Shown in pieces: positions 7,287 to 25,508 of a DNA stretch of 25,508 nucleotides (the stretch's first letter is position 1; each line of letters opens with the position of its first letter). Both the position numbers and the translations under genes were made by a program. The notes below the pieces were generated by a model. It was not told the DNA's origin. It ran no database searches and saw nothing but the letters and a program-made list of their open reading frames with translations. This DNA comes from Nitrospirota bacterium (GTDB taxonomy: Bacteria; Nitrospirota; UBA9217): positions 1 to 25,508 of the forward strand of contig DASWAB010000161.1 in the NCBI GenBank assembly GCA_036391375.1, in the 5' to 3' direction.

Positions 7287-7295
7287 ACAATGAAT

Positions 7296-7324: not shown

Positions 7325-7491
7325 CAGAGATGCATCGGCGGGCGCGTCATGGATATTCGCCGTCTCCGAAAACAATACCCTGCCGACGCCGCCGTCGTCG
7401 GCGTCATCGAGACCGAAAACCTCGATTACCGGCAGGCAAGGGGAAAAGTGCTTGCTGCCTTCAGAAAAGAGGAAGAAAAAAATAAATTCAC

Positions 7492-10375: not shown

Positions 10376-10452
10376 ACGCTTTTACGTCCACCGGAAAAAA
10401 GAAAGAGGAAAGGCGCTGTGGAAAGAATTGTGCCGGCGTGCCGGGGGAAAGA

Positions 10453-10474
10453 GGGAGACGCAGTTGCGTCTCCC
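10453..10474 (-). terminator. Strong hairpin after the USP genes (partial terminator or processing stem)
   Basis: GGGAGACGC-AGTT-GCGTCTCCC just downstream of the USP stop; only a weak U-tract (CUCUUU) on the minus strand. Confidence 0.4.
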
Positions 10475-10484
10475 CGCAACGCAG

Positions 10485-10907
10485 TTACACTCCGACGATG
10501 TATACCGGGCAGGGCGCGCGGTCGATAACTTTTTCCACGACATGATCGCCGAACAGCCTGCTCCAGATGTCTTTTTTCTTTTTCGATCCCATGATGATAA
10601 GATCGCACTTTTCCTCTTCCGCCACTTCAACAATTTTTTGCGACACATCGCCTTCTTCAAGCCTCGTCTTGATCAGCGCGCCCTCGACGGCCGCCATTTT
10701 GCGCGCCTCGGAAACGGCCTTGTCCCCCCCGTCGTCCAGCACATCGTCCAGGTTCTTGATGCCCGTCAGGTTCAGGTCTCCCTCCCAGGGCTGGACGACT
10801 TTCACCACGGTAATCCAGGTTTTCTCGTCTTGGGCGAGCCTGATGCCCTGTTCAAGGACTTTCTTGCGCCCGTTCAGGGCAATGAGGACTTTTCGATACC
10901 CCTTCAT
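10485..10907 (-). CDS. Universal stress protein, single domain, lacking the ATP-binding motif
   Basis: MKGYRKVLIAL..DLIIMGS..VVEKVIDRAPCPVYIV. The real start ATG 10907 has a GAGGTG SD; the 406-aa ORF-track entry includes a spurious N-terminal extension. Confidence 0.88.
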   Translation of the reverse strand: MKGYRKVLIALNGRKKVLEQGIRLAQDEKTWITVVKVVQPWEGDLNLTGIKNLDDVLDDGGDKAVSEARKMAAVEGALIKTRLEEGDVSQKIVEVAEEEKCDLIIMGSKKKKDIWSRLFGDHVVEKVIDRAPCPVYIVGV

Positions 10908-10912
10908 GATTT

Positions 10913-11776
10913 TCACCTCGCAATCAATACGGGACAGGAGGCCTGGGCGATGATCCTCTCCGCCGTGCTCCCCAGAATGGCCTTGTTCACGCCGCGCCAC
11001 CCGTGCGTCCCCATGACAATGAGATCGTTTTTCAGTTTCGCGGATATATCCAGAATCTTCTCGTCCGCCCTTCCCTCCTGGACCACCGCCTTGATCTGCG
11101 CCCCGAGCCCCGCTGCCAGTTTTTTGGCGTCTTCGACGATTTTTTCCGCCGCCTGGTAGAGGGACTTCGTGATGGACTCGGTCTTGATGAAATCCATCAT
11201 TTCCTCGTACCGGGGGATCACGTAGAGGACCGAAATCTCGGCGCCATCGGCCCTCGACAGGGCGCAGGCCCGTGACAGGGCCTTCTTGCTCGAGTCGGAC
11301 CCGTCGAAGGGAACCAGAAGGGACGCATAGCTGCCGGCGCACGAGGTGCAGGGTTTTTTCACGATCAGAACATCGCAGGGCGATTTCAGGATCACCTGCG
11401 AAGTCACGCTGCCCATGAGCAGCCGCTTGAGCCCCCGCCTGCCGTATGTCCCCAGGGCGATGAGTTCGGCCTTCGTTTCCCGCGCGGTGTCCACGATGAC
11501 TTCCGGCGGCTCCCCCTCGCAGACAAGCGACTCGACGCTGCCGTCCAAGCCGAAGTCGGACAGGAGCGCGCTCTTCGCCTGACGGCACATTCCCGCGCCA
11601 AGCTCCAGCCTCGTCTCCATCTGCGAGGGCAGGATGGCGAATTCCTCCTTGTCGAAATACACTGCATGGACGAGCGAAATCCTGCCGCCGTGCTTCTTTA
11701 TCCAATGGGCGGCCTCCGAAAGGGCGGCCTTGCTGAATGCCGATTCATCAAAACCGACGACGATGGAGTTATACAT
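10913..11776 (-). CDS. Universal stress protein, tandem domain
   Basis: Two USP folds, both with G-x2-G-x9-GS (GTYGRRGLKRLLMGS and GTHGWRGVNKAILGS); TAATG overlap with the upstream gene. Confidence 0.92.
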   Translation of the reverse strand: MYNSIVVGFDESAFSKAALSEAAHWIKKHGGRISLVHAVYFDKEEFAILPSQMETRLELGAGMCRQAKSALLSDFGLDGSVESLVCEGEPPEVIVDTARETKAELIALGTYGRRGLKRLLMGSVTSQVILKSPCDVLIVKKPCTSCAGSYASLLVPFDGSDSSKKALSRACALSRADGAEISVLYVIPRYEEMMDFIKTESITKSLYQAAEKIVEDAKKLAAGLGAQIKAVVQEGRADEKILDISAKLKNDLIVMGTHGWRGVNKAILGSTAERIIAQASCPVLIAR

Positions 11777-12609
11777 TAATGAGCGCCTCCGCCTTTTCTG
11801 AATACCAGGCCCACGCCGAACCCGGCGCCCAAAGCCATGCCGATCGAAAGCAGCCCGTAGAATGCGGCGTTGTTTTTGGCCATGGTCGCCAGCGACTTGA
11901 CGATGCCGACCTGTTCCACGTTCACTTTTGTTTCCGCCTGTTCCATGACCTTGTTGTCTTTTACCGCGTAGACCGTCACGAGGTAATCGCCCGGCGCGGC
12001 CTGGTAGGGCCAGTCGGTCAGGATATAATATTCCTGACGTCCGTTCGGCAGCGACGTGGTCGTGATCTTTCCGGCCAAGGAAGCGTACACCTTCGAGTCT
12101 TCCTTATACCTGATAAACTCATTGAACCATTTTATCTTTTCTTCCCCGCTTGCGGCGGGGCTGATCTCCACGTGCTTTGCGAGCGCCGGGTATCCGAGCA
12201 GGTATTTTTCACGCTCGTCCTGCGCCAGGATATCGTCGATCTTCTTCGTGCTGAACACCTCGTAGAAGTTCGGCGTGTTTTCAAATTTGAGCTGCCCGAC
12301 GTTCATCCAGAGCATGCCGCCGACCTTTCCCTTCTGCTTCATCACCTGGTGCCCTTCGGGAGAGGTGATCTTGATGATCAGGTCTACGCCCGAGTCCGCC
12401 TCGCCCTTTACGCTCACCGAGCCTCCATGGTAAAAAAAGCCGATGGTAATGTGATCATGGTTCGCCTTGGCCGTGAGCATGGCCGATGCCGGTTTGGCGC
12501 TGACGAGCTGGAACAGGGAAAACAAGAGCATGAGCGCCAGTGCCCCTAAGACCCTTGCATTGCCGAAGAGCCTGGCGTAGTAAGCCAACGAGTGAATGTG
12601 AATATGCAT
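11776..12609 (-). CDS. TIGR02186-like (Alph_Pro_TM) membrane-anchored partner of the TSUP transporter
   Basis: N-terminal signal/TM, soluble region (ITIGFFYHG..V.V.G..GKVGGMLWMN..APGDY.V.VYA), C-terminal TM. Coupled to the TSUP gene by a TAATG overlap; position is typical for this family. Confidence 0.75.
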   Translation of the reverse strand: MHIHIHSLAYYARLFGNARVLGALALMLLFSLFQLVSAKPASAMLTAKANHDHITIGFFYHGGSVSVKGEADSGVDLIIKITSPEGHQVMKQKGKVGGMLWMNVGQLKFENTPNFYEVFSTKKIDDILAQDEREKYLLGYPALAKHVEISPAASGEEKIKWFNEFIRYKEDSKVYASLAGKITTTSLPNGRQEYYILTDWPYQAAPGDYLVTVYAVKDNKVMEQAETKVNVEQVGIVKSLATMAKNNAAFYGLLSIGMALGAGFGVGLVFRKGGGAH

Positions 12610-13532
12610 TAGTGTCCTCCTGCCTGTGAGATGAGTAATGATGGAGTCAACGTCAGTTCGAAGACGATCTTTATGGTCACAACGAGCACGATGCACGCCA
12701 GAAGGATCTTGAGCTGGTCGGCCTTGAGTTTCCTGCCGAATACCGCGCCGATCTGCGCGCCGATGGTGGAGCCCAGGAGCAGCAGGACCGCAAGGATGAA
12801 GTCCACGCTGTGGTTCGTGTAGGCCTGCAGGAACGTGACCTCGATGCAGGTGAAAAGGATCTGGAACAGGCTCGTGCCCACGACGACGTGCATCGGCATC
12901 CGGAGCATGTAGACCATGATCGGCACCATCAAAAACCCGCCTCCCACGCCCATGATCGCGGCAAGCACGCCGACGAACCCGCCGAGCACGATCGGCACCA
13001 GGATGGAATGGGTGATGCCGGACTTTTCAAAATGGGTCTGAAGCGGGAGCGATTTCAGGAACCTGCCGACGGCCGACTCCTTTTCTTCCTTCGGCGCCGC
13101 GACCGCATCCTTTTTCTTCTTCATGCTCTGGAGGCTTTCGATGAACATGTAAACGCCCACGATGCCGAGCATGAGCACATAAGTCATCTTGATCACGAAG
13201 TCCGCGTTGCCCATGGCATGGAGCAGCTTGATGGCCTGAACGCCCACGAGGCCTCCCAGGAACCCGCCGACAAGCAGATAGATGCCCATCTTGAAGTCCA
13301 CGTTGCCGACCTTCCAGTGCGCATAGGTCCCGGAGGTTGACGCCGCCACGATCTGGTTCGAATCCGTCGCCGCCGCAACGGTCGAAGGGATGCCGAACAT
13401 GATAAGAAGCGGGGTCATGAGAAAACCGCCGCCCACGCCGAAGAGGCCGGAAAGCAGCCCAACGGCGAGCCCGAGCCCTACCGGGATCAGGATGTTGATA
13501 CTCGTCAATGCTACAGGTAGATACAGATACAT
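12609..13532 (-). CDS. TSUP (TauE/SafE family) transporter 1; substrate unknown
   Basis: Highly hydrophobic with the two pseudo-repeat motifs GLFGVGGGFLMTP and AAIMGVGGGFLMVP, plus VVVGTSLFQ; AAGGAG SD. Confidence 0.92.
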   Translation of the reverse strand: MYLYLPVALTSINILIPVGLGLAVGLLSGLFGVGGGFLMTPLLIMFGIPSTVAAATDSNQIVAASTSGTYAHWKVGNVDFKMGIYLLVGGFLGGLVGVQAIKLLHAMGNADFVIKMTYVLMLGIVGVYMFIESLQSMKKKKDAVAAPKEEKESAVGRFLKSLPLQTHFEKSGITHSILVPIVLGGFVGVLAAIMGVGGGFLMVPIMVYMLRMPMHVVVGTSLFQILFTCIEVTFLQAYTNHSVDFILAVLLLLGSTIGAQIGAVFGRKLKADQLKILLACIVLVVTIKIVFELTLTPSLLISQAGGH

Positions 13533-13580
13533 CTTTCACGCTCCTTTTTAGATGAAATTTCTAAGAACGAAGTACGGGAC

Positions 13581-13646
13581 TCTGAACACCATCGGCACGC
13601 AAACGGCGCTCGGCATTGTGCGTTTCACGATGCGATGCTGTTCAGA
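13581..13646. other. 66-nt imperfect inverted repeat upstream of TSUP 1
   Basis: On the transcript strand: UCUGAACA/UGUUCAGA, CAUCG/CGAUG, GCA/UGC, CGU/GCG and AAACG/CGUUU stacked with small bulges. Confidence 0.45.
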
Positions 13647-13672
13647 AATCCGATATTCGCCATTAGCATTTG

Positions 13673-14167
13673 CTACGCCATCACGGTCTGCTTCGTCATG
13701 GTCACGATCGGCCTCGACGCGGTCCGGACGAGCCGGCTCAAGTCCCTGGCCGAGACGTTTCCATTGCCGGTCACCGCGGGACTCAGAACCACCTTGTCGA
13801 TCCCGGCATGGCCCTTGAGGAACGTCCGTATGCCCGAAACCGGGTCCTGGTCCGTTTCCTCAATGTTGACCTGGACGCCCTCTGCGCGGCATTTTTCCAC
13901 GAGCCCCGCCATTATCATCTCGTGCCTTTTTTCGGCGTCATCTGAACCGCCCGCCATGATCCGGCGCGCTGTCTCATGCTCATCAGCTTCGGCGAAGGTC
14001 ACGGCGGTCATCAGGTCCCCCAGCTTCTCCATGAGGTTGGTCTGCTTCCAGACCAGCAGAAAGGTAATGTCTTCATACATCGCCTTTGCCAGCTCAATTG
14101 CGTACGAAACGCCCTCTTCGATGTTCTCATCACGGTACGTAACGAACAGCAACTGTCTCTTTCCCAT
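13673..14167 (-). CDS. Conserved hypothetical, degenerate USP-like fold with internal AVTFAEADEHETAR motif (164 aa)
   Basis: Beta-alpha-beta start (LLFVTY..SYAIELAKA..ITFLLV); AAGGAGG SD before ATG 14167. The ORF-track start 14227 lies in the sigma54 promoter. Confidence 0.7.
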   Translation of the reverse strand: MGKRQLLFVTYRDENIEEGVSYAIELAKAMYEDITFLLVWKQTNLMEKLGDLMTAVTFAEADEHETARRIMAGGSDDAEKRHEMIMAGLVEKCRAEGVQVNIEETDQDPVSGIRTFLKGHAGIDKVVLSPAVTGNGNVSARDLSRLVRTASRPIVTMTKQTVMA

Positions 14168-14210
14168 ACAAGGTCCCTCCTTGCCTTTAAACGTACTTAT
14201 TGCATATAAT

Positions 14211-14226
14211 TGCAACATGGGTGCCA
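14211..14226 (-). promoter_or_regulatory. Sigma54 (-24/-12) promoter, cassette I
   Basis: Minus strand TGGCAC-CCATG-TTGCA is a perfect match to TGGCAC-N5-TTGCW, ending 43 nt upstream of the first gene. Confidence 0.85.
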
Positions 14227-14231
14227 ATACA

Positions 14232-14244
14232 TAACATATTGTTT
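14232..14244 (-). promoter_or_regulatory. Possible IHF site, cassette I
   Basis: AAACAA-TATG-TTA versus WATCAA-N4-TTR (1 mismatch), at about -32 to -44 in an A/T-rich tract. Confidence 0.45.
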
Positions 14245-14279
14245 TTTTACATTAATTTTAATTAAGAGCATATTTACTG

Positions 14280-14296
14280 TGTTTCATATTTGAACG
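14280..14296. promoter_or_regulatory. Candidate enhancer (UAS) site
   Basis: TGTTTCA-TAT-TTGAACG resembles the 17-bp pseudo-palindrome seen upstream of both sigma54 promoters. Confidence 0.3.
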
Positions 14297-14432
14297 ATGA
14301 TGAACACCATGGGGCATGCAAAAGGATACATTGCATCGAAAAAAGTGATTTAAGGCTTTATTTATGAGAGTGGGCGCGTATAATCAGGGGCTTGACTGAA
14401 TGAATCAGGATGGGGTTTACTGATGATAATAT

Positions 14433-14449
14433 TGTTTAAATTTGGAACA
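14433..14449. promoter_or_regulatory. Candidate enhancer (UAS) site
   Basis: TGTTTAA-ATT-TGGAACA. Confidence 0.35.
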
Positions 14450-14529
14450 AAGATATTGCCTTTTCGGGATACTGGATTTAACGCGCCTGACGGGGACATT
14501 CATTTTTTTGCTCAATGCAGCTCAACCAC

Positions 14530-14558
14530 TTGACAAGCCCATTCTGTTCCGTTAACAT
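14530..14558 (+). promoter_or_regulatory. Putative sigma70 promoter for the hypothetical ORF and pal
   Basis: TTGACA (14530-14535), N17, TAACAT (14553-14558). An isolated TATAAT is also present at 14577-14582. Confidence 0.55.
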
Positions 14559-14600
14559 GCGCCGACACTACGACTCTATAATCAATTTCAGAGTTCATTT

Positions 14601-15035
14601 ATGATCTCAGGCAAAAAACAGGCATTCAGAATATTCCTCATCTACTTTTTCATTTACGCGATTTCCCCCCTGACCTATACCGTTGTTCCCGGCGCAGATG
14701 TTGGAGAAAGCAAAAGCGCGCCGAAAGGAACCGCTTCGGTCAGAGAAAACGCCCGTTTATTGCTCTGGGAATTCATCATCGGCGAAATGGCCGCGAAAGA
14801 AGACGCTTCGCCCCATCAGGAAAAAGAGGTCATCATCAGGAAAAAACGCGCAATCATGCCGGAGGACGAGGCTGCAAAATTGTTCCCGGTCGAAAAAACG
14901 TTCACGCCGAAAAGCGGCTGGATATTTTCCATCCGATCAACGCTGAAGAGAAACAATTCCTCCATCGTACCGCAGGGCACCCGTGAAGGGTTTCACCCTC
15001 TCTATGCGGGCCACTCACCTCCGGTTTTGTCATAG
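14601..15035 (+). CDS. Hypothetical protein (144 aa) with an N-terminal hydrophobic segment and C-terminal GHSPP
   Basis: The ORF fills the space between the promoter and pal. FRIFLIYFFIYAISP is a TM/signal-like segment. No family recognised and no clear SD. Confidence 0.55.
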   Translation: MISGKKQAFRIFLIYFFIYAISPLTYTVVPGADVGESKSAPKGTASVRENARLLLWEFIIGEMAAKEDASPHQEKEVIIRKKRAIMPEDEAAKLFPVEKTFTPKSGWIFSIRSTLKRNNSSIVPQGTREGFHPLYAGHSPPVLS

Positions 15036-15181
15036 AAATCCGTCACGGTATCGTCCCAACTCGTCCGGTACAAGCTGTCTGCCGGCGGCGCAATGCGGCA
15101 ATTTGTCCTGCGCCCGGCCCCCGGCATGCGCTTCACGGACGGAACAAATCCATTATTCTGACACAACGAGGAGAACTCATA

Positions 15182-15724
15182 ATGAAAAAGAACAGCATAC
15201 TTTACTACGGAGTCGTTTTGACGATAAGTTTGTTCGCCCTCTGGGGCTGCCCCAAGAAGGCGGAAGTAACCGCCTCCCCGGAAACGCAAAACAGCGGGGC
15301 GGCGACTGCGGCGAAAACCCCGCAGGCCGACACGCAACCGGTCAGGGAGCGGGAAAGCGGGGCGACAGAGCAGGCCTCCCCAGTCCAAACAGGCCTTCAG
15401 CCGGTGTACTTCGACTATGACAAGTCCTTCATCCGCGACGATGCCAGGCAGGCCATGAAGAGCAACGTCGCGTGGCTCAAGTCGCATCCCGCGGCCAAGA
15501 TCAAAATCGAAGGCAACTGCGACGAGCGCGGGACCAGGGAGTATAACCAGGCGCTCGGCCAGCGCCGCGCCGCAAGCGCAAAGAAATTTCTGACGGACGG
15601 AGGGATCGCGGCAGGCCGGATATCCCTCATCAGCTACGGAAAGGAAAAACCGATGTGCAGTGAAGGCGCCGAGAGCTGCTGGCAGAAAAACAGGAGGGAC
15701 GATTTTATCGCGGTAAACAAATAG
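15182..15724 (+). CDS. pal: Peptidoglycan-associated lipoprotein (OmpA-like C domain)
   Basis: Lipobox-like LWGC, flexible linker, VYFDYDKS, IEGNCDERGTREYNQALGQRRA, ISYGKEKP and NRR; GAGGAG SD. Confidence 0.9.
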   Translation: MKKNSILYYGVVLTISLFALWGCPKKAEVTASPETQNSGAATAAKTPQADTQPVRERESGATEQASPVQTGLQPVYFDYDKSFIRDDARQAMKSNVAWLKSHPAAKIKIEGNCDERGTREYNQALGQRRAASAKKFLTDGGIAAGRISLISYGKEKPMCSEGAESCWQKNRRDDFIAVNK

Positions 15725-15737
15725 CGGCGGAATTGAA

Positions 15738-15785
15738 CGGCGTGAATCTGCGGCGGCAGCGCCGCAGGTTCATGCCGCGCTTTTT
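15738..15785 (+). terminator. Intrinsic terminator after pal
   Basis: 18-bp stem CGGCGUGAAUCUGCGGCG/CGCCGCAGGUUCAUGCCG with two G-U pairs that work only on the + strand, GCAG loop, followed by CGCUUUUU. Confidence 0.7.
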
Positions 15786-15801
15786 CCTCCGGGAAAGAAT
15801 C

Positions 15802-17133
15802 TTACTCTTCCTTCAGTATTCTCCACAGGCTCGTCCTCGAAATCCCGAGCACCTCGGCGGCCTTGGACTTGTTGCCGCCGAACAGATCGAGCACCTTTTC
15901 CGCGTATTCCTTGTTCAGCTCTTCGATCGTCTTCACGCTGTCGGGCTCAATCGTGTCAATCTGGAACATCTTGATGGTCTGGGGCAGGCTTTCCGGGGTG
16001 ATCATCTGGCCCTTTTCGAGGATGATGGCGCGCTCGATGATGTTTTCGAGTTCCCGCACGTTCCCGGGATAACTGTAGTGGGCCAGCACGTCCAGCGCCT
16101 CTTTCGTGAATCCCGTGACTTTCTTGCGGGAGCTGGGAAGGTGTTTTTCCAGAAAATATTCACAGAGCGGCTGGATATCGTCCTTCCGGTCTCGCAGCGG
16201 CGGAATGAAGATCTCCATGATATTCAGCCGGTAGTACAGGTCCTCGCGGAACCTGCCCTCGTTGATAATGGACCGCACGTTCTGGTTGGTCGCCGCGATG
16301 AACCGCACGTCGACTCTGATGGGTTTGGTCCCTCCCACCCGGTAAAACTCCCCCTCTTCGATCACCTTGAGGAGCTTGGCCTGAAGGTTCGGGGCCATTT
16401 CCGAGATCTCGTCCAAAAACAGCGTGCCGGTGTCCGCGATCTCCACAAGCCCCTGCTTTGTCCTGACCGCGCCGGTGAACGCCCCTTTCTCGTGGCCGAA
16501 AAGCTCGCTCGCCAGCAATTCCTCCGTCAGGGTCGCGCAGTTGATGGAAAGGAACGGCATGGCCTGCCGCCTGCCCGTGTAGTGGATGATCTTGGCAAGG
16601 AGGCTCTTCCCCACCCCCGTCTCGCCGGTCAGCAGCACGTTGCAGTCGGAATCCTTCATCCCCTCGATCGTTTCGAGGATGCGGTTCATGCTCTTGCTCT
16701 TGGCGATGATTGAGACTTTCTTGTCCATCCCCGCGTAGGCCTTGAGGGCGATGTTTTCCTTCCTGAGCGCCTTCTGTTCGCGGATCTTCTTTACCTTGAG
16801 GAGCAGTTCGTCGAGATTGAAAGGCTTGGTCACGTAATCATACGCGCCCTTCTTCATGGCATCCACCACGGACCCGATGCTGCCGAATCCGGTGACGATG
16901 ATCACTTCCGCCTCGATCTGTTTTTCCCTGATCTTCTCGAGGAGCTCGATCCCGGTCATCCCCGGCATCTTGATGTCTGCGATCAGGAGGTCGAAGTGGT
17001 CGCTCTCGATCTCCCGGAACGCATCCGCACCGTTCTGCGTCCCGACGGCGGCGTAGCCCTCTTTCCGGAGCGCATTCACCAGGTGCTTGAGCGTTATTTC
17101 CTCGTCTTCCGCTATGAGAATTTTAAATGCCAT
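15802..17133 (-). CDS. Sigma54-dependent response regulator (NtrC/AtoC family: REC, AAA+, Fis HTH)
   Basis: ILIAEDE and ADIKMPG; Walker A GETGVGKS; ELFGHEKGAFTGA; LFLDEI; FREDLYYRLN; YPGNVRELEN; HTH NKSKAAEVLGISRTSLWR. Confidence 0.95.
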   Translation of the reverse strand: MAFKILIAEDEEITLKHLVNALRKEGYAAVGTQNGADAFREIESDHFDLLIADIKMPGMTGIELLEKIREKQIEAEVIIVTGFGSIGSVVDAMKKGAYDYVTKPFNLDELLLKVKKIREQKALRKENIALKAYAGMDKKVSIIAKSKSMNRILETIEGMKDSDCNVLLTGETGVGKSLLAKIIHYTGRRQAMPFLSINCATLTEELLASELFGHEKGAFTGAVRTKQGLVEIADTGTLFLDEISEMAPNLQAKLLKVIEEGEFYRVGGTKPIRVDVRFIAATNQNVRSIINEGRFREDLYYRLNIMEIFIPPLRDRKDDIQPLCEYFLEKHLPSSRKKVTGFTKEALDVLAHYSYPGNVRELENIIERAIILEKGQMITPESLPQTIKMFQIDTIEPDSVKTIEELNKEYAEKVLDLFGGNKSKAAEVLGISRTSLWRILKEE

Positions 17134-17156
17134 GACGGCTCCCCTGTCGAAGGACG

Positions 17157-18743
17157 TTATCCCGCCGGATCCTGCCGTACCGGCAAAACGATCGTGAACG
17201 TCGCGCCCTTGCCTTCATCGCTTTCGGCGGCGATATCGCCGCCGTGCTTTTTGATGATATTATACACAATGGCCAGTCCCAGCCCGGTGCCTTTGTCCTT
17301 GGTCGTAAAGAAGGGCTCGAAAATCTTGTCCAGCGACTCCCGCGGGATCCCCCTGCCCGTATCAGCGATCCTGATGACGACCGCTTCGTCCGCCTTTTTT
17401 ACCGTAACGGAAAGGGCTCCCTTCCCCTGCATCGCATCCACGGCGTTTACGAAAAGGTTGGAAAAAACCTGCTCCATCTGCCCCTGGTCCGCGGAAACAA
17501 TGATCTGCCGCGGCTCCTGCTCGAGTGAGAACCGGATATTTCCGAGATCGCGGCCGCTGCCGAGGCGGAGGTAGGAGTCCTGAATCAGTTCCGCAAGCTC
17601 GACATCCTTGAACTGCGGCTCTCTTCCGCGCGCAAACTCGAGGAGTTCGCCCACGATCCGCTTCACCCGCTCGGACTGGCCCACGATGTCGTTCACCGCC
17701 TCCTTCACCTCGTCGGTGCATCGTTCCCCCGCCTCGCGCGCAAGCACCTGCGCCGCGATATAGATGTTGTTCAGCGGATTGTTCAGCTCGTGCGCCACGC
17801 CCGAGGCGAGCGTGCCGATGGCCGCGAGTTTCTTTGCCTGCATCAGTTCCCGGTTCTTCAGCTCGATCTCCCGCTCGTGGAGCGCGAGCTGGTCCTCCAT
17901 GGTGTTGAACTTGTCGATCAGGATGCCCACCTCATCATGCGCGTTTCTGCGCGAGCGCGGGAGGGACAGATGGGGGTAGGAGCCCTTCCCCGTCTTTTCC
18001 ACGACGCTGATCAGCAGCATCAGGCGCTTTACCACGTTCGTGGTGATAAAAAACAGCAATCCGATGCCCACCGCGAAAAACAGCGGGAAGAATATCAGGA
18101 TGGCGATCTGGGAAAGCCGGATCATGGCGTCCGCGTTCTCCCGCGCGACCTTGTCGAGGTCCTTGGAGATGACGAGGATGTCCTCGCCGGTTTTCCGGAG
18201 CGCCGCGATGTCCGTATCGAGCTCCCGGAGCCCGGAGATCAGCGGATGCGCGGGGGAGACGGAGAACACGTTCGTTAAAAAATCCGCGGATTGCGCAGGT
18301 CGCTCGAGAAACGTTGCTTCCACGAGCGCGAGAAACCGTCCGTTCTTTTCCAGGGCGGTCCTCGCCTTTTTGAATTCTCCGGACAGCCTTTTCGCGGACG
18401 ACTCGATTTTCGAGAAGCGCTGCTCGTAGTCGCTGATCCTGTCGCGAAGCGACAGCTGGTCGGCCCTGTCGATACCCGGGTTCCGCACCAGGATGTCCTT
18501 AAGGTCGGCGAGATACGCGCGGACGAACCCCGTTTCCTCGTCGGCCTTTTGGGGGGCATAGAGAAAGAAGTTTTTTTCGTGGCGACGGAGCTGGAGCGAT
18601 TTCCGGCTTATGGTGTCCGTTACCTCGAGGTAACGGATCTCCTTTCTGATCTCGATGAAATTGACGTATTCGAAGGCGGCAAGGATGGCAATGATGAAAG
18701 CGCTGATGAAAAAACTGAGGGCTATTTTTTTTTTGAGCGACAT
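17157..18743 (-). CDS. Sensor histidine kinase 2 (larger helical sensor, HAMP, HisKA, HATPase)
   Basis: Two TM segments, LQLRRHEKNFFLY, H-box GVAHELNNPL, NLFVNA, DTGRGI, FFTTK and GTGLGLA; directly upstream of the sigma54 regulator. Confidence 0.93.
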   Translation of the reverse strand: MSLKKKIALSFFISAFIIAILAAFEYVNFIEIRKEIRYLEVTDTISRKSLQLRRHEKNFFLYAPQKADEETGFVRAYLADLKDILVRNPGIDRADQLSLRDRISDYEQRFSKIESSAKRLSGEFKKARTALEKNGRFLALVEATFLERPAQSADFLTNVFSVSPAHPLISGLRELDTDIAALRKTGEDILVISKDLDKVARENADAMIRLSQIAILIFFPLFFAVGIGLLFFITTNVVKRLMLLISVVEKTGKGSYPHLSLPRSRRNAHDEVGILIDKFNTMEDQLALHEREIELKNRELMQAKKLAAIGTLASGVAHELNNPLNNIYIAAQVLAREAGERCTDEVKEAVNDIVGQSERVKRIVGELLEFARGREPQFKDVELAELIQDSYLRLGSGRDLGNIRFSLEQEPRQIIVSADQGQMEQVFSNLFVNAVDAMQGKGALSVTVKKADEAVVIRIADTGRGIPRESLDKIFEPFFTTKDKGTGLGLAIVYNIIKKHGGDIAAESDEGKGATFTIVLPVRQDPAG

Positions 18744-18849: not shown

Positions 18850-19704
18850 CTACGATTTCACGACCAGGACCGGGCATGCGGCATAACCGATGACTTTCTC
18901 GGCCACGCTTCCCATCAGAAGCCTGCGGAGCCCGGTCCTGCCGTGCGAGCCGATGACGATCATGTCCGCCTTCTGTTCCTCTGCGAGGTTGTTGATCGCC
19001 TCGAAGGCCTCGGCCTCGCCCACAAAGGTGTCCGCTTTTACTCCCGCCTCCGCTGCCCTGCTCTTGACGTCCGCAACGAACCCCTTTGCCTTGCGCACAA
19101 GGTCCTCGACAGCCTCGGGCGCCTCCGCATAAAATTCCGGGGGAACATCCACGACGGACAGGACCTTCAATTCCCCGCCGTAGGACTTTGCAAAAACGAT
19201 CGCGCGCTCGGTCGCCGCGGCGCTATGCTTCGAGCCGTCGGTCGCGAGCACGATCGTTTTCCAGCCTACCTTCGTTTCGTTCGGCACGACCAGCACATCC
19301 TGTCGGGAATGGCCGATGACCCGCGCCGTCACCCGCCCGACCAGCATGCGTTCGACCGGACGCAGGCCCCTGCGGCCCATGACGATCAGATCGCAGTTCT
19401 CGGCGTCGGCCAGGTCGACGATCCTCTCATGGATCTCGCCTTCCTCGCAGACCGTCTTGATGAGCGCCCGCTCCTGATCGGCGAGACGCCGCGCCCCGGC
19501 CAGGGCTTCTTCGCAGGGCTTTCGAAGCGCGGCGCGAATGTCTTTGACCCCGAGGATTTCGATCTCGCCGTCGTAGGGGGGCACGACCGACGTGACCGTG
19601 ATCCAGCATTTTTCATCGACTGCGAGCCGAAACGCCTGCAAAAGCGCGTTCCGACCCGAGTCGGACCCGTCTATCGCAACGAGGAGCTTCCTATACTTCC
19701 CCAT
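18850..19704 (-). CDS. Universal stress protein, tandem domain
   Basis: YRKLLVAIDGS..MGRRGLRPVERMLVGRV and WKTIVLATDGS..IGSHGRTGLRRLLMGSVAEKV..CPVLVV. ATG 19704 overlaps the end of the TSUP gene. Confidence 0.92.
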   Translation of the reverse strand: MGKYRKLLVAIDGSDSGRNALLQAFRLAVDEKCWITVTSVVPPYDGEIEILGVKDIRAALRKPCEEALAGARRLADQERALIKTVCEEGEIHERIVDLADAENCDLIVMGRRGLRPVERMLVGRVTARVIGHSRQDVLVVPNETKVGWKTIVLATDGSKHSAAATERAIVFAKSYGGELKVLSVVDVPPEFYAEAPEAVEDLVRKAKGFVADVKSRAAEAGVKADTFVGEAEAFEAINNLAEEQKADMIVIGSHGRTGLRRLLMGSVAEKVIGYAACPVLVVKS

Positions 19705-20773
19705 GCTCCATGGCCCCCGACGCAAGCCGCAGTTTTTCGGCCTGCCGCCCCTGCCACATGGCTTTGAGGACGATGAAAGCGCCGAGCAGCAATGCGAATA
19801 TCATTATACCAAAGCTCACGGTCTTGAGCAATGACACCGTGCCGCCCTCGAGCTTCGCGATGAGGCCGAGCTGCGAGAGATAAACCGGGACCATCAGGCC
19901 GCGGCTGAAAAGAACAATCACCATGATCACGCCCATCACGACCTTGATCATTAAGGGCTTCACGTAGGTGGTGCCGATGGCGCCGAGCTGGATGCCGAAG
20001 AGTGAACCCGCCAGGATGATCATGGCAAGCCGGATGTCGACCAGTCCGTGCATGGCATACTTGAACGAACCGCCGAGGCCCATCACGAAAGCGATCACCA
20101 GCTCCGTGGCGGATGCCATGAGGCTCGGAGCGCCAAGGACATAAATCATGGAGGGTACGCCGACAAAGCCGCCGACCGCAATCGTGGCCGCCAGCATGCC
20201 GGTGGCAAAACCGAGCGGAATGGTGAAGAGCACCGACACTTTGGCATTCAGGCTCTTGAAGTATACCATGGTGCCGGGTATATTGATTGATTGGATCCAC
20301 TTGGCCAGTTTGGTAGTCTTTTCTTCCGCGTGGGCATCGCCCGACTTATAGCTCTTCCACGCGTCATAAAGGACAAATCCGCCGACCGTTGCGAGGATCA
20401 CGACGAAGGCGACGCTCACATAGAGGTTGGAGCCCGCGTCACCGAAGGCCTTCTTGATGTTTTCCTGAATCTGCGCCCCGTACAGCACGCCCGCTTCCGC
20501 CGAGATGCCGAGGACGATGCCGAGTTTCACGTCCACCTGGCCGTACTTGGCGCGTTTGAGCGCGCCCACGAGCGCCTTGGGGAATTTGTGGCACATGTTG
20601 CTCGCAACCGCCACGAGGCCGGGGACGCCCAGGCTCATCATGCCCGGCGTCAGGACGAAGGCCCCGCCGGAGCCGATAAACCCGCTGACGAGGCCGCCCA
20701 CAAAACCGACCCCGAACAGGTACAGGATCGTTACGGCGTCAAGATTGATGAAGTTCGATACGATGTCGTGCAT
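19691..20773 (-). CDS. TSUP (TauE/SafE family) transporter 2, different subfamily from TSUP 1
   Basis: SGFIGSGGAFVLTPG and ATIAVGGFVGVP repeat motifs, many TM segments; AGGAGG SD before ATG 20773. Confidence 0.9.
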   Translation of the reverse strand: MHDIVSNFINLDAVTILYLFGVGFVGGLVSGFIGSGGAFVLTPGMMSLGVPGLVAVASNMCHKFPKALVGALKRAKYGQVDVKLGIVLGISAEAGVLYGAQIQENIKKAFGDAGSNLYVSVAFVVILATVGGFVLYDAWKSYKSGDAHAEEKTTKLAKWIQSINIPGTMVYFKSLNAKVSVLFTIPLGFATGMLAATIAVGGFVGVPSMIYVLGAPSLMASATELVIAFVMGLGGSFKYAMHGLVDIRLAMIILAGSLFGIQLGAIGTTYVKPLMIKVVMGVIMVIVLFSRGLMVPVYLSQLGLIAKLEGGTVSLLKTVSFGIMIFALLLGAFIVLKAMWQGRQAEKLRLASGAMEHGEV

Positions 20774-20774
20774 C

Positions 20775-21026
20775 TTACTTAACCTCCTTTTTCTTTTTCG
20801 CGGCCTCGATGCCGAGCACCGTCCAGAAGCTGCCGGTAAACGAACCATGGATATACGAAAATACGAACGCCGTCAGGATCGGGAGAAACGCATACAGTCC
20901 GCCTTTGGCGAAGGTATCGTTCACCAGATCCTGCTTGAGCAGGAGGGCCGCATAGAGCGCCACGGAAATGATCCCCATGACGATCATGGAGCCTACCGGC
21001 TTCCTTTTTGTGCTGCTTTGTGCCAT
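20775..21026 (-). CDS. Small two-TM membrane protein (83 aa) directly upstream of TSUP 2
   Basis: Two hydrophobic segments and SYIHGSFTGSFW; TAAGGAGG SD; its C-terminus carries the SD of the TSUP gene. Confidence 0.8.
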   Translation of the reverse strand: MAQSSTKRKPVGSMIVMGIISVALYAALLLKQDLVNDTFAKGGLYAFLPILTAFVFSYIHGSFTGSFWTVLGIEAAKKKKEVK

Positions 21027-21050
21027 GATAATTCCTCCTTAGGATTATTT

Positions 21051-21117
21051 ACCACTAAGTCACTAAGACACGAAATGAACGACCTTGTGTTATTTCGTGA
21101 CTTCGTGCCTTCGTGGT
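21051..21117. repeat. REP-like inverted repeat built from 8-nt units
   Basis: ACCACTAAGTCACTAAGACACGAAAT, 15-nt spacer, ATTTCGTGACTTCGTGCCTTCGTGGT; 22 of 26 positions complementary; three CAC(T/G)AA units per arm. Confidence 0.7.
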
Positions 21118-21131
21118 GAAAGTTTTTGGTT

Positions 21132-21626
21132 CTACGCCCTTGCCCCGTCCATTACCACGACCAGAGGGCATTTCAACTTCTGCCACAGCTCCGAAAGCAT
21201 CGTGTCCTTCCTGTCGCAGTCCTCGTTCAGGCTGTTGTGCGATTCGACGACGGCAAAGAGTATCTCTTTTTCCCTGCTCGTGTAATCGATCACCGCCTGC
21301 TTCAGGCAGCCCGATTTGCGGATCAGCCGGTATCTCACGCCTTCCGCCGAAAGCTCGGACTCGAGGCCCCGCATTCCCGCATCGGCATGCCCTTCCAAAG
21401 GCGAGACATACAGGATGTCGAGGTCCGCGCCGATCCTCTTCGAGGAATTGACGGCGTACTTCAGGGTTTTGGCGTCGATCCTTCCTTCTTTGAGGGCGAG
21501 CAGGACCCTCCGCCCTTCCTTGAGCAACGAACGGGCCGCTTCGCTTTCCCCTTCTTCAGCGAACGATGCGGCGGTCAGCGTGTTCTCAACCTGTTTCATC
21601 ATTTTTTTCAGTTTCGTTGTTTCCAT
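21132..21626 (-). CDS. Conserved hypothetical, N-terminal AASFAEEGESEAAR motif + degenerate USP-like domain (164 aa)
   Basis: RRVLLAL..TLKYAVNSSKRIGADLDILYV..KCPLVVV resembles a USP without the ATP motif. Confidence 0.7.
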   Translation of the reverse strand: METTKLKKMMKQVENTLTAASFAEEGESEAARSLLKEGRRVLLALKEGRIDAKTLKYAVNSSKRIGADLDILYVSPLEGHADAGMRGLESELSAEGVRYRLIRKSGCLKQAVIDYTSREKEILFAVVESHNSLNEDCDRKDTMLSELWQKLKCPLVVVMDGARA

Positions 21627-21656
21627 GCGCCCCTCGCGGAATTCGCTCTTCGAGCA

Positions 21657-21833
21657 TTAGTCAACGCGCAGTTGTTTTCTCGCTGCCGGCCTCTGGAAAT
21701 CTCGCGCCGACGGCCGGTCGGCTTTTCTCGGCCGCTCTTCGTTCATGATCCGGCGCGCGGTGTCGAACTCACCCGCTTCCGCAAACGATGCAGCCACCAT
21801 TGCGGTTTCAAATTTTTTCAGCAAACCTTTCAT
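21657..21833 (-). CDS. Small protein (58 aa) consisting mainly of the AASFAEAGEFDTAR motif
   Basis: AGGAGG SD before ATG 21833; first gene after the sigma54 promoter; the motif is shared with two other ORFs in this window. Confidence 0.65.
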   Translation of the reverse strand: MKGLLKKFETAMVAASFAEAGEFDTARRIMNEERPRKADRPSARDFQRPAARKQLRVD

Positions 21834-21873
21834 GATTGATTCCTCCTTTCCTTGGGATTTCACTAATTGGTAT

Positions 21874-21889
21874 TACAACTACCATGCCA
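21874..21889 (-). promoter_or_regulatory. Sigma54 (-24/-12) promoter, cassette II
   Basis: Minus strand TGGCAT-GGTAG-TTGTA: correct GG and spacing, with GT instead of GC at -12. It ends 40 nt upstream of the first gene, similar to cassette I. Confidence 0.65.
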
Positions 21890-21917: not shown

Positions 21918-21963
21918 ATATGGACGTATTTATTCTGATTGGGAATCTGTTTGCGGTTTATAC

Positions 21964-21980
21964 TGTTTTAGAATGCAATA
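21964..21980. promoter_or_regulatory. Candidate enhancer (UAS) site
   Basis: TGTTTTA-GAA-TGCAATA. Confidence 0.3.
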
Positions 21981-22032
21981 GGTATATCAGAGAAAAGTGC
22001 TATCTATTTAATTTATAAATAAATTTTGCATG

Positions 22033-22061
22033 TTGCATTGATAATGAAAACGTTGTAAAAT
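22033..22061 (+). promoter_or_regulatory. Putative sigma70 promoter of lon and kinase 3
   Basis: TTGCAT (22033-22038), N17, TAAAAT (22056-22061). Confidence 0.55.
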
Positions 22062-22067
22062 GCAACC
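22051..22067. promoter_or_regulatory. Candidate enhancer/operator palindrome overlapping the lon -10
   Basis: CGTTGTA-AAA-TGCAACC; the GTTGYA-N3-TGCAAC core has one mismatch. Confidence 0.4.
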
Positions 22068-22090: not shown

Positions 22091-24097
22091 ATGAAATTTT
22101 TTCAAAAATCCGAAGACAGTAATCAGGAACTCATCATAGAAGAACTCCGTCGGGAAATTTCCGCCGCAGCCATGCCGCGCCCGGTCCGGAAAATCGCGGA
22201 GCAGGAACTCGACCTCCTGACCAGGATAAGCCCTGCCGCGGCGGAATACACCATCGGCCTTGCCTATATTGATTACCTTGTCGCGCTGCCCTGGAACAAA
22301 AAAACCGAGGACAACCTCGACATCGTCCTTGCGGAGCGCATCCTGAACGAAAGCCACTACGGCCTGGACAAGATCAAGGAGCGGATCATGGAACACCTTG
22401 CGGTCAAGGTGCTCCTGATGAACAGGAAAGCGCGGGTCCTTATCGCCGACGACGAGGAAATCGCGCGAAAAAACCTCGAGCACATCCTGACCAAGGAACA
22501 GTACGAGGTTGTCGCTGTCCCGGACGGGGAAAAAGCGGTCCTGGAGTTGGAGGGCTCGGCCTTCGACGTGGTGCTGACCGATCTTCGCATGGGGAAGACA
22601 GACGGCATGAATCTCCTGGAGCACGTCAGGATCAAATATCCTGACACGAGGGTCATTGTCGTGACCGGCTACGCCACGATCCCCTCGGCCATCGAGTCCA
22701 TGCAGAAAGGCGCCTTCCACTACATAGCAAAACCCTTCAAGCTCGACGACGTGCGCGAGACCGTAAAACGGGCGGTCGAACAGAAGGCCCGGACGCCCCT
22801 CACCAAAGGGTCGGTGCTCTGCTTCGCGGGCCCTCCGGGAACAGGGAAGACGTCGCTCGGGCAATCCATCGCCCGCGCGCTCGGCAGAAAATTCACGAGA
22901 ATCGCCCTGGGCGGGCTCAAGGACGAGGCGGACATCCGGGGGCACCGCCGCACCTACGTGGGCGCCAAGCCCGGCAGGGTGATCGAGGAACTCCGGAGGG
23001 TGGAATCCGCGAACCCCGTGATCATGCTCGACGAACTCGACAAAATCGGCGGCGACTTCAAGGGCGACCCCGCGTCCGCGCTCCTCGAAGTGCTGGACGC
23101 GGAACAGAACCGGGCCTTCGTGGACCACTACCTCGACGTTCCGTTCGATCTCTCGAACGTCATGTTTATCCTGACCGCGAACGTGCTCGACGCCGTCCCT
23201 GCCCCGCTCCGCGACCGGATGGAGATCATCGAGTTCGCAGGGTACACCGAGGAGGAAAAGGCCAACATCGCTTTGCAGTTTCTCTGCCCCAAACAGATCC
23301 GCGAAAAGGGGCTCTCTTCGGGCCGCGTCATCTTCCGGGACGAGGCCGTCGGCGCGATCATCCAGGACTACACCCGCGAGGCGGGCATCCGCAGCCTTGA
23401 GCGGAGGATCGCCACGATCTGCCGGAAGATCGCGCGGGAATCGCTCAGGAGCGGAGACGGCGGGGAGGCCGTTACCATCACCCCCGGATCCCTGGAACGC
23501 TACCTCGGCAGGAAAAAATTCCGTTTCGACGTAATCGAGGAGCGGGACCGGGTCGGCGTGACGACCGGCCTCGTGCGCACCGAAAACGGCGGCGAGATCA
23601 TCTTTGTCGAGGCCGCCAGGATGAAGGGAAAGAAGGAACTCATCATCACGGGCTCGCTGGGCGACGTGATGCGGGAGTCTGCGCAGGCGGCGCTCAGCTA
23701 CATCCGGAGCAACGCCGGGGCCTTCGGCATCTCCGAGGATTTCTTCGAGCGCCAGGACATCCACATCCACGTGCCGTCCGGCGCCATCCAGAAGGACGGG
23801 CCGTCTGCCGGCGTCACCATCCTCGCCGCGCTCGCGTCGCTTTTGACCGGGCGACCGGCCCGCAGGGACGTGGCCATGACCGGCGAGATCACCCTGACCG
23901 GACGGATCCTGCCCGTCGGCGGCATCCGGGAAAAAACCCTCGCGGCGAAGCGCGCACGGGTCAAAACCGTGATCATCCCCGGGAAGAACCGGGCCGACGT
24001 GGAGGAGCTGTCCGACGACATGAAAAAAGGCCTCGACATCCGCCTCGTGGAAACGGCGCCCGAGGTCATCGAGGCGGCGCTCACGGCGAACCTATGA
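22091..24097 (+). CDS. lon: Lon (endopeptidase La) protease lacking the N-domain, with an inserted receiver domain
   Basis: YIDYLVALPW, HYGLDKIKERI, Walker A GPPGTGKT, RGHRRTYVGA, Walker B IMLDELDK, PLRDRME, catalytic KDGPSAG (Ser) and GGIREK (Lys). REC at about aa 113-232 (LIADDE, LTD164, VTGY, KPF). A specialised paralog, not the housekeeping lon. Confidence 0.92.
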   Translation: MKFFQKSEDSNQELIIEELRREISAAAMPRPVRKIAEQELDLLTRISPAAAEYTIGLAYIDYLVALPWNKKTEDNLDIVLAERILNESHYGLDKIKERIMEHLAVKVLLMNRKARVLIADDEEIARKNLEHILTKEQYEVVAVPDGEKAVLELEGSAFDVVLTDLRMGKTDGMNLLEHVRIKYPDTRVIVVTGYATIPSAIESMQKGAFHYIAKPFKLDDVRETVKRAVEQKARTPLTKGSVLCFAGPPGTGKTSLGQSIARALGRKFTRIALGGLKDEADIRGHRRTYVGAKPGRVIEELRRVESANPVIMLDELDKIGGDFKGDPASALLEVLDAEQNRAFVDHYLDVPFDLSNVMFILTANVLDAVPAPLRDRMEIIEFAGYTEEEKANIALQFLCPKQIREKGLSSGRVIFRDEAVGAIIQDYTREAGIRSLERRIATICRKIARESLRSGDGGEAVTITPGSLERYLGRKKFRFDVIEERDRVGVTTGLVRTENGGEIIFVEAARMKGKKELIITGSLGDVMRESAQAALSYIRSNAGAFGISEDFFERQDIHIHVPSGAIQKDGPSAGVTILAALASLLTGRPARRDVAMTGEITLTGRILPVGGIREKTLAAKRARVKTVIIPGKNRADVEELSDDMKKGLDIRLVETAPEVIEAALTANL

Positions 24098-25508
24098 TGC
24101 ACTATACCCCCAGCATCCGGCAGAAAATTACGTTCGGCTACTACGCCATCACGGCCCTGATCATCGGCCTCTCGGTGTTCACCTTCGTCGAGCTCCGCTA
24201 CGTCGAGAAGAAGATCATGTTCGGCGAGGCCATTTCCGAATTCTTCGACACCACCCTCGAGATCAGGAGGTTCGAGAAAAACTTTTTTCTCTACGAACAG
24301 CGCTCCGATTACGAAGAGAACGTCAGCTACGTTTCCCGCTCCCAGGACCTCATCGATGACAACATCAGGGGGTTTGCCACAGTCGCGTCGCCCGACCAGC
24401 TGGGGGCTCTCCAGGCCAACCTGAAAACATACAAGGACCTCATGGAAGAGTACGCAGCGCTCGGCGGGCGGCACACGGCTCGCAAGAGCATGCTTGCCGG
24501 CAGGATCCGCCAGACCGGCAAGGACATCATCACCACGGCCGAGGAGCTTTCCCGCACGGAGCGAAGGAGCCTGCAGCAGATTTTAAACAACTCGCAGCGC
24601 ATTCTCATTGTCTCAATCATTTTCCTTTCCCTCGCGGTGATCGCCGTAGGCCAGATCCTGTCGCGCATGGTGGTGAAGCCCCTGAAGTCGCTGGAGGAAA
24701 GCATGGGGGTCATCGCGGAGGGAAAGTTCGAGCGCGTGGCAATCGACTCCAAGGACCGGGAGATCGTCTCGCTCACGAGCGCGTTCAACAAGATGCTGAA
24801 GGAGCTCGAACTGCACGAGCGGCACCTGATCCAGTCGGAGAAGCTCGCGTCCCTGGGCACGCTCCTCTCCGGCGTGGCGCACGAGCTGAACAATCCGCTG
24901 TCGAACATTTCGTCGTCGAACCAGATCCTGAGGGAGGAGCTCTTTGAGGGTCACGGGGCAAAAGCCGAGGGGCAGGGAAAAAACGATGCGGAGACCGGCG
25001 TCGCTCCCGGCCTTACCCATCCTGACCCCGCTTTCATCAAGGAGCTCATCTCGCAGGTCAACGAGCAGACGGACCGGGCGAGGAACATCGTCCGCTCCCT
25101 CCTCGATTTCTCGCGCAACCGCGAGTTCAAAAAAGAGTCCCTCTCGCTCAGGAAGCTTCTTGAGGAGACCCTTCAGTTCATAAAGGGCCAGGTGCCTGCG
25201 GGGATCACGATCACGTTTTCCCTGCCGGAGGACATCGAGATCTTCGCGGACAAACAGCGGATCCAGCAGGCGTTTCTGAACCTGATTAAAAACGCCGTCG
25301 AGGCGATCGGCGAGGACGAAGGGGCCGTCTCCGTCAGCGCCGGGAAACGCAGGGCCATGGACGATCTCGAAGATGAAAAAAAGATCGGCATTTACAACTA
25401 CCTCAAATACCGCGGCAAGTGCACGCTCGACCAGGACACGGTCGATATCGAGGTGCGGGACAGCGGCTCGGGGATCCCGCAGGACATCCTGCCGAAAATC
25501 TTCGACCC
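24094..25508 (+). CDS. Sensor histidine kinase 3, 3' end truncated by the window
   Basis: Not in the ORF track because it has no stop. Manual translation is open for 471 codons from the ATGA overlap with lon: TM, LEIRRFEKNFFLY, TM, HAMP, GVAHELNNPL, NLIKNA, DSGSGIP..KIFDP. Confidence 0.92.
   Translation, partial: MMHYTPSIRQKITFGYYAITALIIGLSVFTFVELRYVEKKIMFGEAISEFFDTTLEIRRFEKNFFLYEQRSDYEENVSYVSRSQDLIDDNIRGFATVASPDQLGALQANLKTYKDLMEEYAALGGRHTARKSMLAGRIRQTGKDIITTAEELSRTERRSLQQILNNSQRILIVSIIFLSLAVIAVGQILSRMVVKPLKSLEESMGVIAEGKFERVAIDSKDREIVSLTSAFNKMLKELELHERHLIQSEKLASLGTLLSGVAHELNNPLSNISSSNQILREELFEGHGAKAEGQGKNDAETGVAPGLTHPDPAFIKELISQVNEQTDRARNIVRSLLDFSRNREFKKESLSLRKLLEETLQFIKGQVPAGITITFSLPEDIEIFADKQRIQQAFLNLIKNAVEAIGEDEGAVSVSAGKRRAMDDLEDEKKIGIYNYLKYRGKCTLDQDTVDIEVRDSGSGIPQDILPKIFD

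Follow-up and report, generated by a model that had tools for sequence, protein, structure and literature searches.

The window analysed here is a stretch of 25,508 nucleotides that makes up the whole of contig DASWAB010000161.1, part of a 430-contig metagenome-assembled genome of a Nitrospirota bacterium. Near the end of the window a stop-free open reading frame (ORF) on the plus strand (22091-24097; 668 amino acids plus the stop codon) encodes a protease of the LonA type. This protein, called REC-Lon below, carries a complete response-regulator receiver domain (REC) inside its AAA+ module. Its gene is followed by a sensor histidine kinase and faced by a divergent operon of four genes. An earlier note, made from the DNA letters and their translations, had drawn attention to this arrangement, and its claims are taken up below where the results bear on them.

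Architecture and conservation of REC-Lon

Four Pfam domains were matched by the translated protein: Response_reg (PF00072) at residues 116-225 (E 2e-27), AAA at 243-383, Lon_lid at 405-454 and Lon_C at 463-665 (E 9e-84). Against the NCBIfam model TIGR00763 lon (endopeptidase La) REC-Lon scored 724.8 bits, the cutoff being 608.05. This match falls into two stretches because the inserted receiver splits Lon, as can be seen from the alignment obtained in a search of solved structures. In that alignment residues 16-109 correspond to residues 10-103 of the B. subtilis Lon construct (252-341 in E. coli-type numbering), and residues 235-665 correspond to 103-531 (E. coli-type 343-771). The receiver thus reads as a clean insertion of about 125 residues at a single point of Lon, with no Lon sequence deleted. 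The insertion point lies between helix α0 (HYGL..KERI) and strand β1 ahead of Walker A.

The order of the parts along the plus strand is as follows. Residues 1-88 (22091-22354) form a three-helix bundle and one further helix, which, judged from the start of the alignment and from the predicted model, are the sole remnant of the LonA N-terminal region. Helix α0 of the AAA+ module (HYGL..KERI..EHLAV, residues 89-112, 22355-22426) ends three residues before the first receiver strand. The receiver itself spans residues 113-233 (22427-22789), with the D164 codon at 22580-22582, and a short linker of fixed length and variable sequence (residues 234-241, 22790-22813) leads from receiver α5 to AAA+ β1. 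The AAA+ core and lid follow (residues 242-460, 22814-23470), and the Lon S16 protease domain (residues 461-668, 23471-24094) contains Ser572 at 23804-23806 and Lys615 at 23933-23935. Within the AAA+ region we located Walker A (GPPGTGKT, 247-254), the pore-loop residue Y289, Walker B (D314/E315), the arginine finger R376 and the sensor-2 residue R434.

An AlphaFold2 model of the protein (predicted local distance difference test score, pLDDT, 84.3; predicted TM-score, pTM, 0.75) agrees with this layout. It shows helices at 3-25, 30-45, 51-65 and 78-88, then α0 at 93-111, a canonical (βα)5 receiver at 115-233, a low-confidence linker at 234-241 (pLDDT below 50 at 236-240) and then the Lon core. 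When the model was used in a Foldseek search, only LonA structures were matched, with a target-normalised TM-score of up to 0.92, and none of the Foldseek matches had an inserted receiver.

REC-Lon has neither the N-terminal globular domain nor the long helix of LonA, and its alignment to solved Lons begins only at E. coli-type residue 252. The substrate-binding domain LON_substr_bdg (PF02190) gave no Pfam match in REC-Lon, whereas both canonical paralogues of the same genome have a match. Upstream of the ATG the frame is open for 24 codons only, and the DNA there consists of a conserved intergenic region and then of genes on the opposite strand. Therefore, no N-domain is hidden 5' of the gene. 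The description of the protein in the earlier note is borne out by these data: a complete receiver with D120-D121, D164, T192 and K214 at the positions given, its site between the HYGL..ERI helix and the strand before Walker A, the loss of the N-domain, and intact Walker motifs and Ser-Lys dyad.

Conservation was followed across 41 aligned species, with identities of 48-82%. Five receiver residues (D120, D121, D164, T192 and K214) never vary, and Y211, the switch aromatic, is kept in at least 90%. Walker A and B, Y289, R376, R434 and the dyad residues S572 and K615 are invariant as well, and so are H89, G91, K96, R98 and L103 of α0. In 39 of the 41 species 22 residues separate R98 from D120, and likewise 33 residues separate K214 from the first residue of Walker A (G247) in 39 of 41. 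Fixed linker lengths of this kind argue for a rigid mechanical connection and not for a loose tether. A separate observation concerns the extreme N-terminus, MxFFKKSED (residues 1-9, 22091-22117), which is kept across Nitrospirota and Desulfobacterota, with M1, F4 and K6 in at least 90% of the same 41 species. It has low confidence in the model and could be a functional tail, e.g. one that contacts the pore or a partner.

Among species-representative genomes of Nitrospirota and Desulfobacterota we found 61 REC-Lon loci. Most are from Nitrospirota (Thermodesulfovibrionales, Nitrospira), and the others are from Desulfobacterota (Desulfovibrionaceae, Desulfobulbus, Desulfopila, Desulfosoma). Cultured carriers include Desulfovibrio inopinatus, Desulfocurvibacter africanus, Solidesulfovibrio fructosivorans, Oceanidesulfovibrio marinus and Fundidesulfovibrio magnetotacticus. 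With residues 1-300 of the window protein as the query, both the receiver and the Lon Pfam domains were present in 120 of 120 among the matches listed; with the first 300 residues of a Desulfovibrionaceae REC-Lon, 1,107 protein clusters (90% identity) matched at E <= 1e-40. Among representatives at 50% identity, the top matches were mostly tandem-AAA Lon and canonical Lon proteins, and REC-Lon was found as a handful (P0123 and some fragments); therefore the family is a compact one.

The fragmented state of this metagenome-assembled genome might suggest that the architecture is an assembly chimera, or that the gene is a pseudogene or its receiver a degenerate pseudo-receiver with no role in signalling. 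The same junctions are present in all 61 species genomes, closed chromosomes and cultured Desulfovibrionaceae among them, which is the distribution check that the earlier note had proposed and which excludes an assembly chimera. Against a pseudogene or pseudo-receiver, the frame is intact and all phospho-acceptor residues are invariant. We therefore give this explanation a negligible probability.

Two variations on Lon architecture were seen in the same searches. Two Nitrospirota REC-Lon genes (L025:6001-8175 and L027:4404-6578) encode proteins of 725 amino acids with a C-terminal extension of about 55 residues past the protease domain. In the search of representatives, canonical Lon was outscored by tandem-AAA Lon proteins; these metagenome Lons (P0122, P0125-P0130 and P0133; 890-1380 amino acids) have two or three tandem AAA+/Lon_lid modules, one Lon_C and no receiver.

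The genome from which the window derives also encodes two canonical LonA proteins with N-domains, to which REC-Lon is 57-59% identical over residues 238-665. It follows from the presence of these two ordinary LonA genes that REC-Lon is an additional, specialised paralogue.

Neighbouring genes and the shared intergenic region

The stop codon of the Lon gene and the start codon of the kinase gene share an ATGA overlap, as the earlier note had said, and the kinase start lies at 24094. The kinase (24094-25508, plus strand) has the order transmembrane-sensor-transmembrane, HAMP, HisKA and HATPase_c, and is cut by the contig end. The final 141 bases of the window (25368-25508) are identical to bases 1-141 of another contig, C206 (locus L004), and because of this exact overlap the two contigs join. 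In the joined sequence the kinase is complete at 520 amino acids, and the next gene (L004:491-1849) encodes a σ54 NtrC-type response regulator of 452 amino acids, with REC, σ54-interaction AAA+ and helix-turn-helix (HTH) regions. As read from the joined contigs, the transcription unit would be Lon-kinase-regulator, matching the REC-Lon module of the DVU3303 type discussed below.

To see how general this arrangement is, neighbours were counted in the 35 REC-Lon loci whose flanks reach 5 kb or more on both sides. An orthologue of the NtrC-type regulator is a neighbour in 26 of them and the kinase, a conserved neighbour also, in 23, while each gene of the divergent USP/TauE set is present in 24-25. 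Two layouts dominate. In 14 loci, as in the window, the transporter set is divergent from Lon-kinase-regulator; in six, kinase and regulator are divergent from Lon, and Lon is followed by the transporter set. Thus in the two dominant layouts Lon is always the first gene beside a shared control region. A third layout was seen in four Nitrospirota loci (L029, L041, L049 and L065), where the σ54 regulator comes directly after REC-Lon with no kinase between.

The divergent operon of the window (19691-21833, minus strand) comprises four genes, and the same set is found in Nitratidesulfovibrio. From the intergenic region outwards they encode a 58-amino-acid protein (21657-21833), a USP-like protein of 164 amino acids with a weak Pfam Usp match (21132-21626), a membrane protein of 83 amino acids (20775-21026) and an anion transporter of the TauE/SafE family with a Pfam TauE match (19691-20848). 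The 58-amino-acid protein has a helix motif, FAExGExETAR, that recurs at the N-terminus of the USP-like one; across 42 loci this motif is the sole strongly conserved part of the small protein.

Ten intergenic regions were aligned. A conserved block at 21872-21889 (minus strand) has the form of a σ54-type −24/−12 element, TGGCAYGG-N3-TTGTAAT, and heads the divergent operon; its −12 part is off consensus (GT for GC), and matches to the pattern by itself are no more frequent in the window than chance would give. Between this element and the Lon start, at 21964-22066, the alignment contains three blocks of the TGCAA/TTGCA type with invariant or near-invariant columns, namely 21964-21979, TGTTGCAT at 22031-22038 and the palindrome GTTGTAAAATGCAAC at 22052-22066. 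We infer that the element is the putative promoter of the divergent operon and that the TGCAA-type blocks are candidate sites for a σ54 activator.

Two candidates for a promoter of the Lon operon were considered. A possible σ54 promoter, TGGGAATCTGTTTGC at 21940-21954, was rejected: it is absent from the ten closest relatives, and 19 such matches were found where 21 are expected by chance. A conserved TTGCAT-N17-TAAAAT upstream of Lon failed the criteria of the σ70 promoter scan.

Elsewhere in the window, a second and paralogous signalling/transport module occupies 5501-18743 on the minus strand. It has no Lon. Its genes encode a USP-like ORF, TauE, Alph_Pro_TM, a Usp protein of 406 amino acids, two MshEN-DUF202 proteins, and a kinase with a single-domain receiver; a kinase/NtrC-type pair lies at 15802-18743, and a perfect σ54 consensus, TGGCACCCATGTTGC, is present at 14212-14226 (minus strand). 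Two very long ORFs overlap on opposite strands at 2854-5556 (plus, 900 amino acids) and 2878-5460 (minus, 860 amino acids). The former has no Pfam match at E <= 0.001, and the latter was read in a separate note by the same reader as a dikinase resembling phosphoenolpyruvate synthase.

A Lon protease as a probable response regulator

The earlier note stated that no functional characterisation was known. This holds for biochemistry, on which our search of the literature found nothing, and does not hold for genetics and regulation, since the family has been described in Desulfovibrio. DVU3303, DVU3304 and DVU3305 of D. vulgaris Hildenborough were named a 'three-component system' (Rajeev et al. 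2011, PMC3333781), and orthologues with a Lon-type regulator were noted in Thermodesulfovibrio, Thioalkalivibrio and Dechloromonas (PMC3333781). DVU3305 binds the region between DVU3302-3298, genes for membrane proteins and for proteins of the UspA type, and DVU3303-3305, and both operons are induced by several stresses (PMC3333781). The regulon was listed by Kazakov et al. 2015 (PMC4641369). For comparison with the window we used a contig of the congeneric Nitratidesulfovibrio (L160), and not D. vulgaris Hildenborough itself. Its REC-Lon, in which the receiver occupies the same position, is 47% identical to ours over residues 19-644. The eight-gene layout is identical too: REC-Lon, kinase and σ54 regulator run divergently from Usp, TauE and three small genes. 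From the identity, the receiver site and the layout it follows that the window locus is an orthologue of the DVU3298-DVU3305 module. The window gene is one more member of the known DVU3303 family.

In a study by transposon sequencing with random barcodes (RB-TnSeq), insertions in each of DVU3303, DVU3304 and DVU3305 gave a benefit in 6.25 mM chlorate, and the cofitness of every pair of these genes exceeded 0.9 (Trotter et al. 2023, PMC10102598). The benefit was tied to the target DVU3299, an anion transporter (PMC10102598). The literature thus shows that in D. vulgaris DVU3303-3305 act as one functional unit.

We consider it highly probable, at roughly 80%, that the window gene is a specialised third Lon paralogue of the DVU3303 family which is itself a response regulator, switched by its kinase through D164 as the earlier note had proposed. 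What was observed directly is the architecture and how well it is conserved, the intactness of the catalytic sites and the set of neighbouring genes. Phosphotransfer to D164 would be the input to the protease, activation is the favoured direction of regulation, and the substrate is probably a component of the pathway. The earlier note had described a two-component system whose output is ATP-dependent proteolysis. The receiver residues, the kinase and the protease sites speak for this description; it missed the third partner, the σ54 regulator encoded on contig C206. From the gene content, the system is better read as one kinase with two receivers, giving a transcriptional and a proteolytic branch, and not as a simple two-component pair. 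Two further proposals of the earlier note are conjectural: six receivers on the ring may stand in for gating by the N-domains, and proteins of the locus may be the targets.

The following sequence of events may be proposed. Most likely, the shared membrane sensor kinase transfers phosphoryl groups to both receivers. The NtrC-type regulator would then turn on the divergent σ54 operon for the 58-amino-acid, USP-like, 83-amino-acid membrane and TauE-type transporter proteins, while phosphorylation of D164 would alter the ATPase or the hexamer state of Lon and hence the proteolysis of a pathway component. A change on the α4-β5-α5 face of the receiver could be relayed through the linkers, which are short and of fixed length, to the ATPase or adjacent subunits, so that proteolysis is switched, probably on. 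The concordant D. vulgaris phenotypes favour a positive role for Lon, e.g. removal of an inhibitor, although such a common phenotype is subject to possible polarity of insertions. More specifically, receiver phosphorylation may switch the Lon motor directly, through hexamer assembly, through the nucleotide pocket beside α0/β1 or through access to the pore, so that the kinase would set off, alongside σ54-dependent transcription, the breakdown of one particular component of the pathway. To this detailed form we would give somewhat less than even odds. In one variant, the Lon receiver would also recruit the sister receiver of the NtrC-type regulator as a substrate.

The two receivers of the operon resemble each other closely. 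The Lon receiver is 52-55% identical to that of the partner regulator and at most 42% identical to any other receiver in the genome, and both have the α1 motif NLEH and the stretch FDVVLTDLRM. Kinase specificity is usually set by these regions of a receiver. In a tree of receivers from the fetched loci (138 receivers, 122 columns), the Nitrospirota Lon receivers and the receivers of the partner regulators are sister clades with support 54/87. Some rows of this tree were labelled 'Lon' wrongly by a location filter, and monophyly of the rows so labelled was rejected. A single origin of the insert from the receiver of the partner regulator is not established, the sister support of 54/87 being weak and the Desulfobacterota Lon receivers lying outside; the tree is suggestive only.

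The mutual closest relationship of the two receivers, sister clades in Nitrospirota, might mean that the Lon receiver is a docking module. It would form a phosphorylation-dependent heterodimer with the receiver of the σ54 regulator and deliver that regulator to the protease, which would give negative feedback or adaptation. Receivers of the NtrC type commonly dimerise via the α4-β5-α5 face, and because the usual substrate-recognition domain is missing, some new recognition element is needed. The similarity of the receivers is, however, equally explained by shared kinase specificity. Moreover, if the activator were degraded, mutants of Lon and of the regulator should have opposite phenotypes, contrary to the report in D. 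vulgaris, though the point is subject to polarity. We regard this explanation as unlikely.

That one kinase serves two very similar receivers would also fit a phosphate sink. In that case the Lon receiver would compete for phosphoryl groups, draining them from the shared kinase and tuning their flow to the σ54 regulator, with proteolysis constitutive or secondary. Branched pathways in which one kinase serves two regulators, one of them with a sink receiver, are an established design. A pure sink needs neither an intact AAA+ motor nor a Ser-Lys dyad, yet both are invariant in the 41 species. It would also be expected to give a phenotype opposite to that of the regulator mutant, whereas the D. 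vulgaris phenotypes are the same, again with the caveat of polarity. Such a role alone seems improbable to us.

Several points weigh against the reading of REC-Lon as a kinase-switched response regulator. Part of the phenotype common to the D. vulgaris mutants could be a polar effect of transposons inserted in the operon's first gene. In 9-12 of the 35 well-flanked loci the kinase or the regulator is not adjacent to REC-Lon, and in the tree, built from a short alignment, the Desulfobacterota Lon receivers fall outside those of Nitrospirota. The literature search found no report on any DVU3303-family protein that deals with phosphotransfer, ATPase, proteolysis, structure or substrates. Finally, co-folding of full-length REC-Lon with the 58-amino-acid protein gave a score of 0.00 in three runs, with a pLDDT of about 35 for the partner, and so lends no support to an interaction; by the calibration of the tool, a score of 0.00 is no evidence against binding.

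If receiver phosphorylation does switch the Lon motor directly, REC-Lon would be the first demonstrated case of two-component phosphorylation controlling an AAA+ protease in cis. Regulation of AAA+ proteases normally acts in trans, through adaptors such as RssB and CpdR, or through degrons of the substrate. In REC-Lon the receiver is part of the motor itself. The family, widespread in sulfate reducers and in Nitrospirota (Nitrospira among them), provides a simple setting in which to study how a phospho-switch can gate a Lon ring lacking an N-terminal gate, and to ask what benefit a two-component pathway draws from having a proteolytic branch next to its transcriptional one. A genetic handle exists in D. 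vulgaris in the chlorate phenotype of DVU3303-3305. The window itself is of modest value, adding one further member together with details of gene layout and receiver relatedness.

Comparison with known systems

The closest known system is that of DVU3303. In both, a receiver-bearing Lon is followed by a histidine kinase and a σ54 regulator, and a divergent operon encodes small proteins, a USP-type protein and TauE. The window copy differs in its origin, an uncultured bacterium to which Nitrospirota genomes are nearest. The Desulfovibrio protein is longer (749 amino acids, against 668 in the window), with additional low-complexity inserts in its lid and protease regions, and the lineage of the window has the short USP-like protein (164 amino acids) and lacks the 292-amino-acid Usp at the end of the Desulfovibrio operon.

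With canonical LonA (MEROPS S16, TIGR00763; the enzymes of E. coli, B. subtilis, 3m6a, and Meiothermus taiwanensis, 4ypl and 7fd4) REC-Lon shares the three-helix bundle, the AAA+ core (pore-loop tyrosine, arginine finger and sensor 2 included), the lid and the Ser-Lys protease. In LonA the selection of substrates and the control of pore access fall to a platform above the three-helix bundle, made of six N-terminal globular domains and a triangle of long helices (PMC8519571). Canonical LonA has the globular domain and the long helix of this gating 'helix triangle' (PMC8519571), whereas REC-Lon has neither. Since REC-Lon starts at the three-helix bundle, the N-terminal gating platform of LonA is missing. 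Conversely, between α0 and β1, where LonA has only a short loop, REC-Lon contains a receiver of 121 amino acids.

REC-Lon may also be compared with RssB and CpdR, which are separate response-regulator adaptors acting in trans on ClpXP. In these systems, too, a receiver ties two-component phosphorylation to ATP-dependent proteolysis. RssB and CpdR act from outside the protease, whereas the receiver of REC-Lon is covalently built into the protease's own ATPase.

The order receiver, short linker, AAA+ P-loop is that of the NtrC-family enhancer-binding proteins. The TIGR01818 (NtrC) match runs from the receiver into Walker A (residues 116-266 of REC-Lon), and the receiver is of the NtrC/AtoC type. 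Unlike that family, REC-Lon has no GAFTGA loop and no HTH; PF00158 (σ54-interaction) and HTH_8 gave no Pfam match in it, and both were found in the neighbouring regulators. Its AAA+ module is one of the Lon (HCLR) clade and serves a protease, so that the resemblance is one of working principle only. In the NtrC family, phosphorylation of the receiver controls assembly of the AAA+ ring. By this likeness, the NtrC family may serve as the best available analogy for how REC-Lon is switched.

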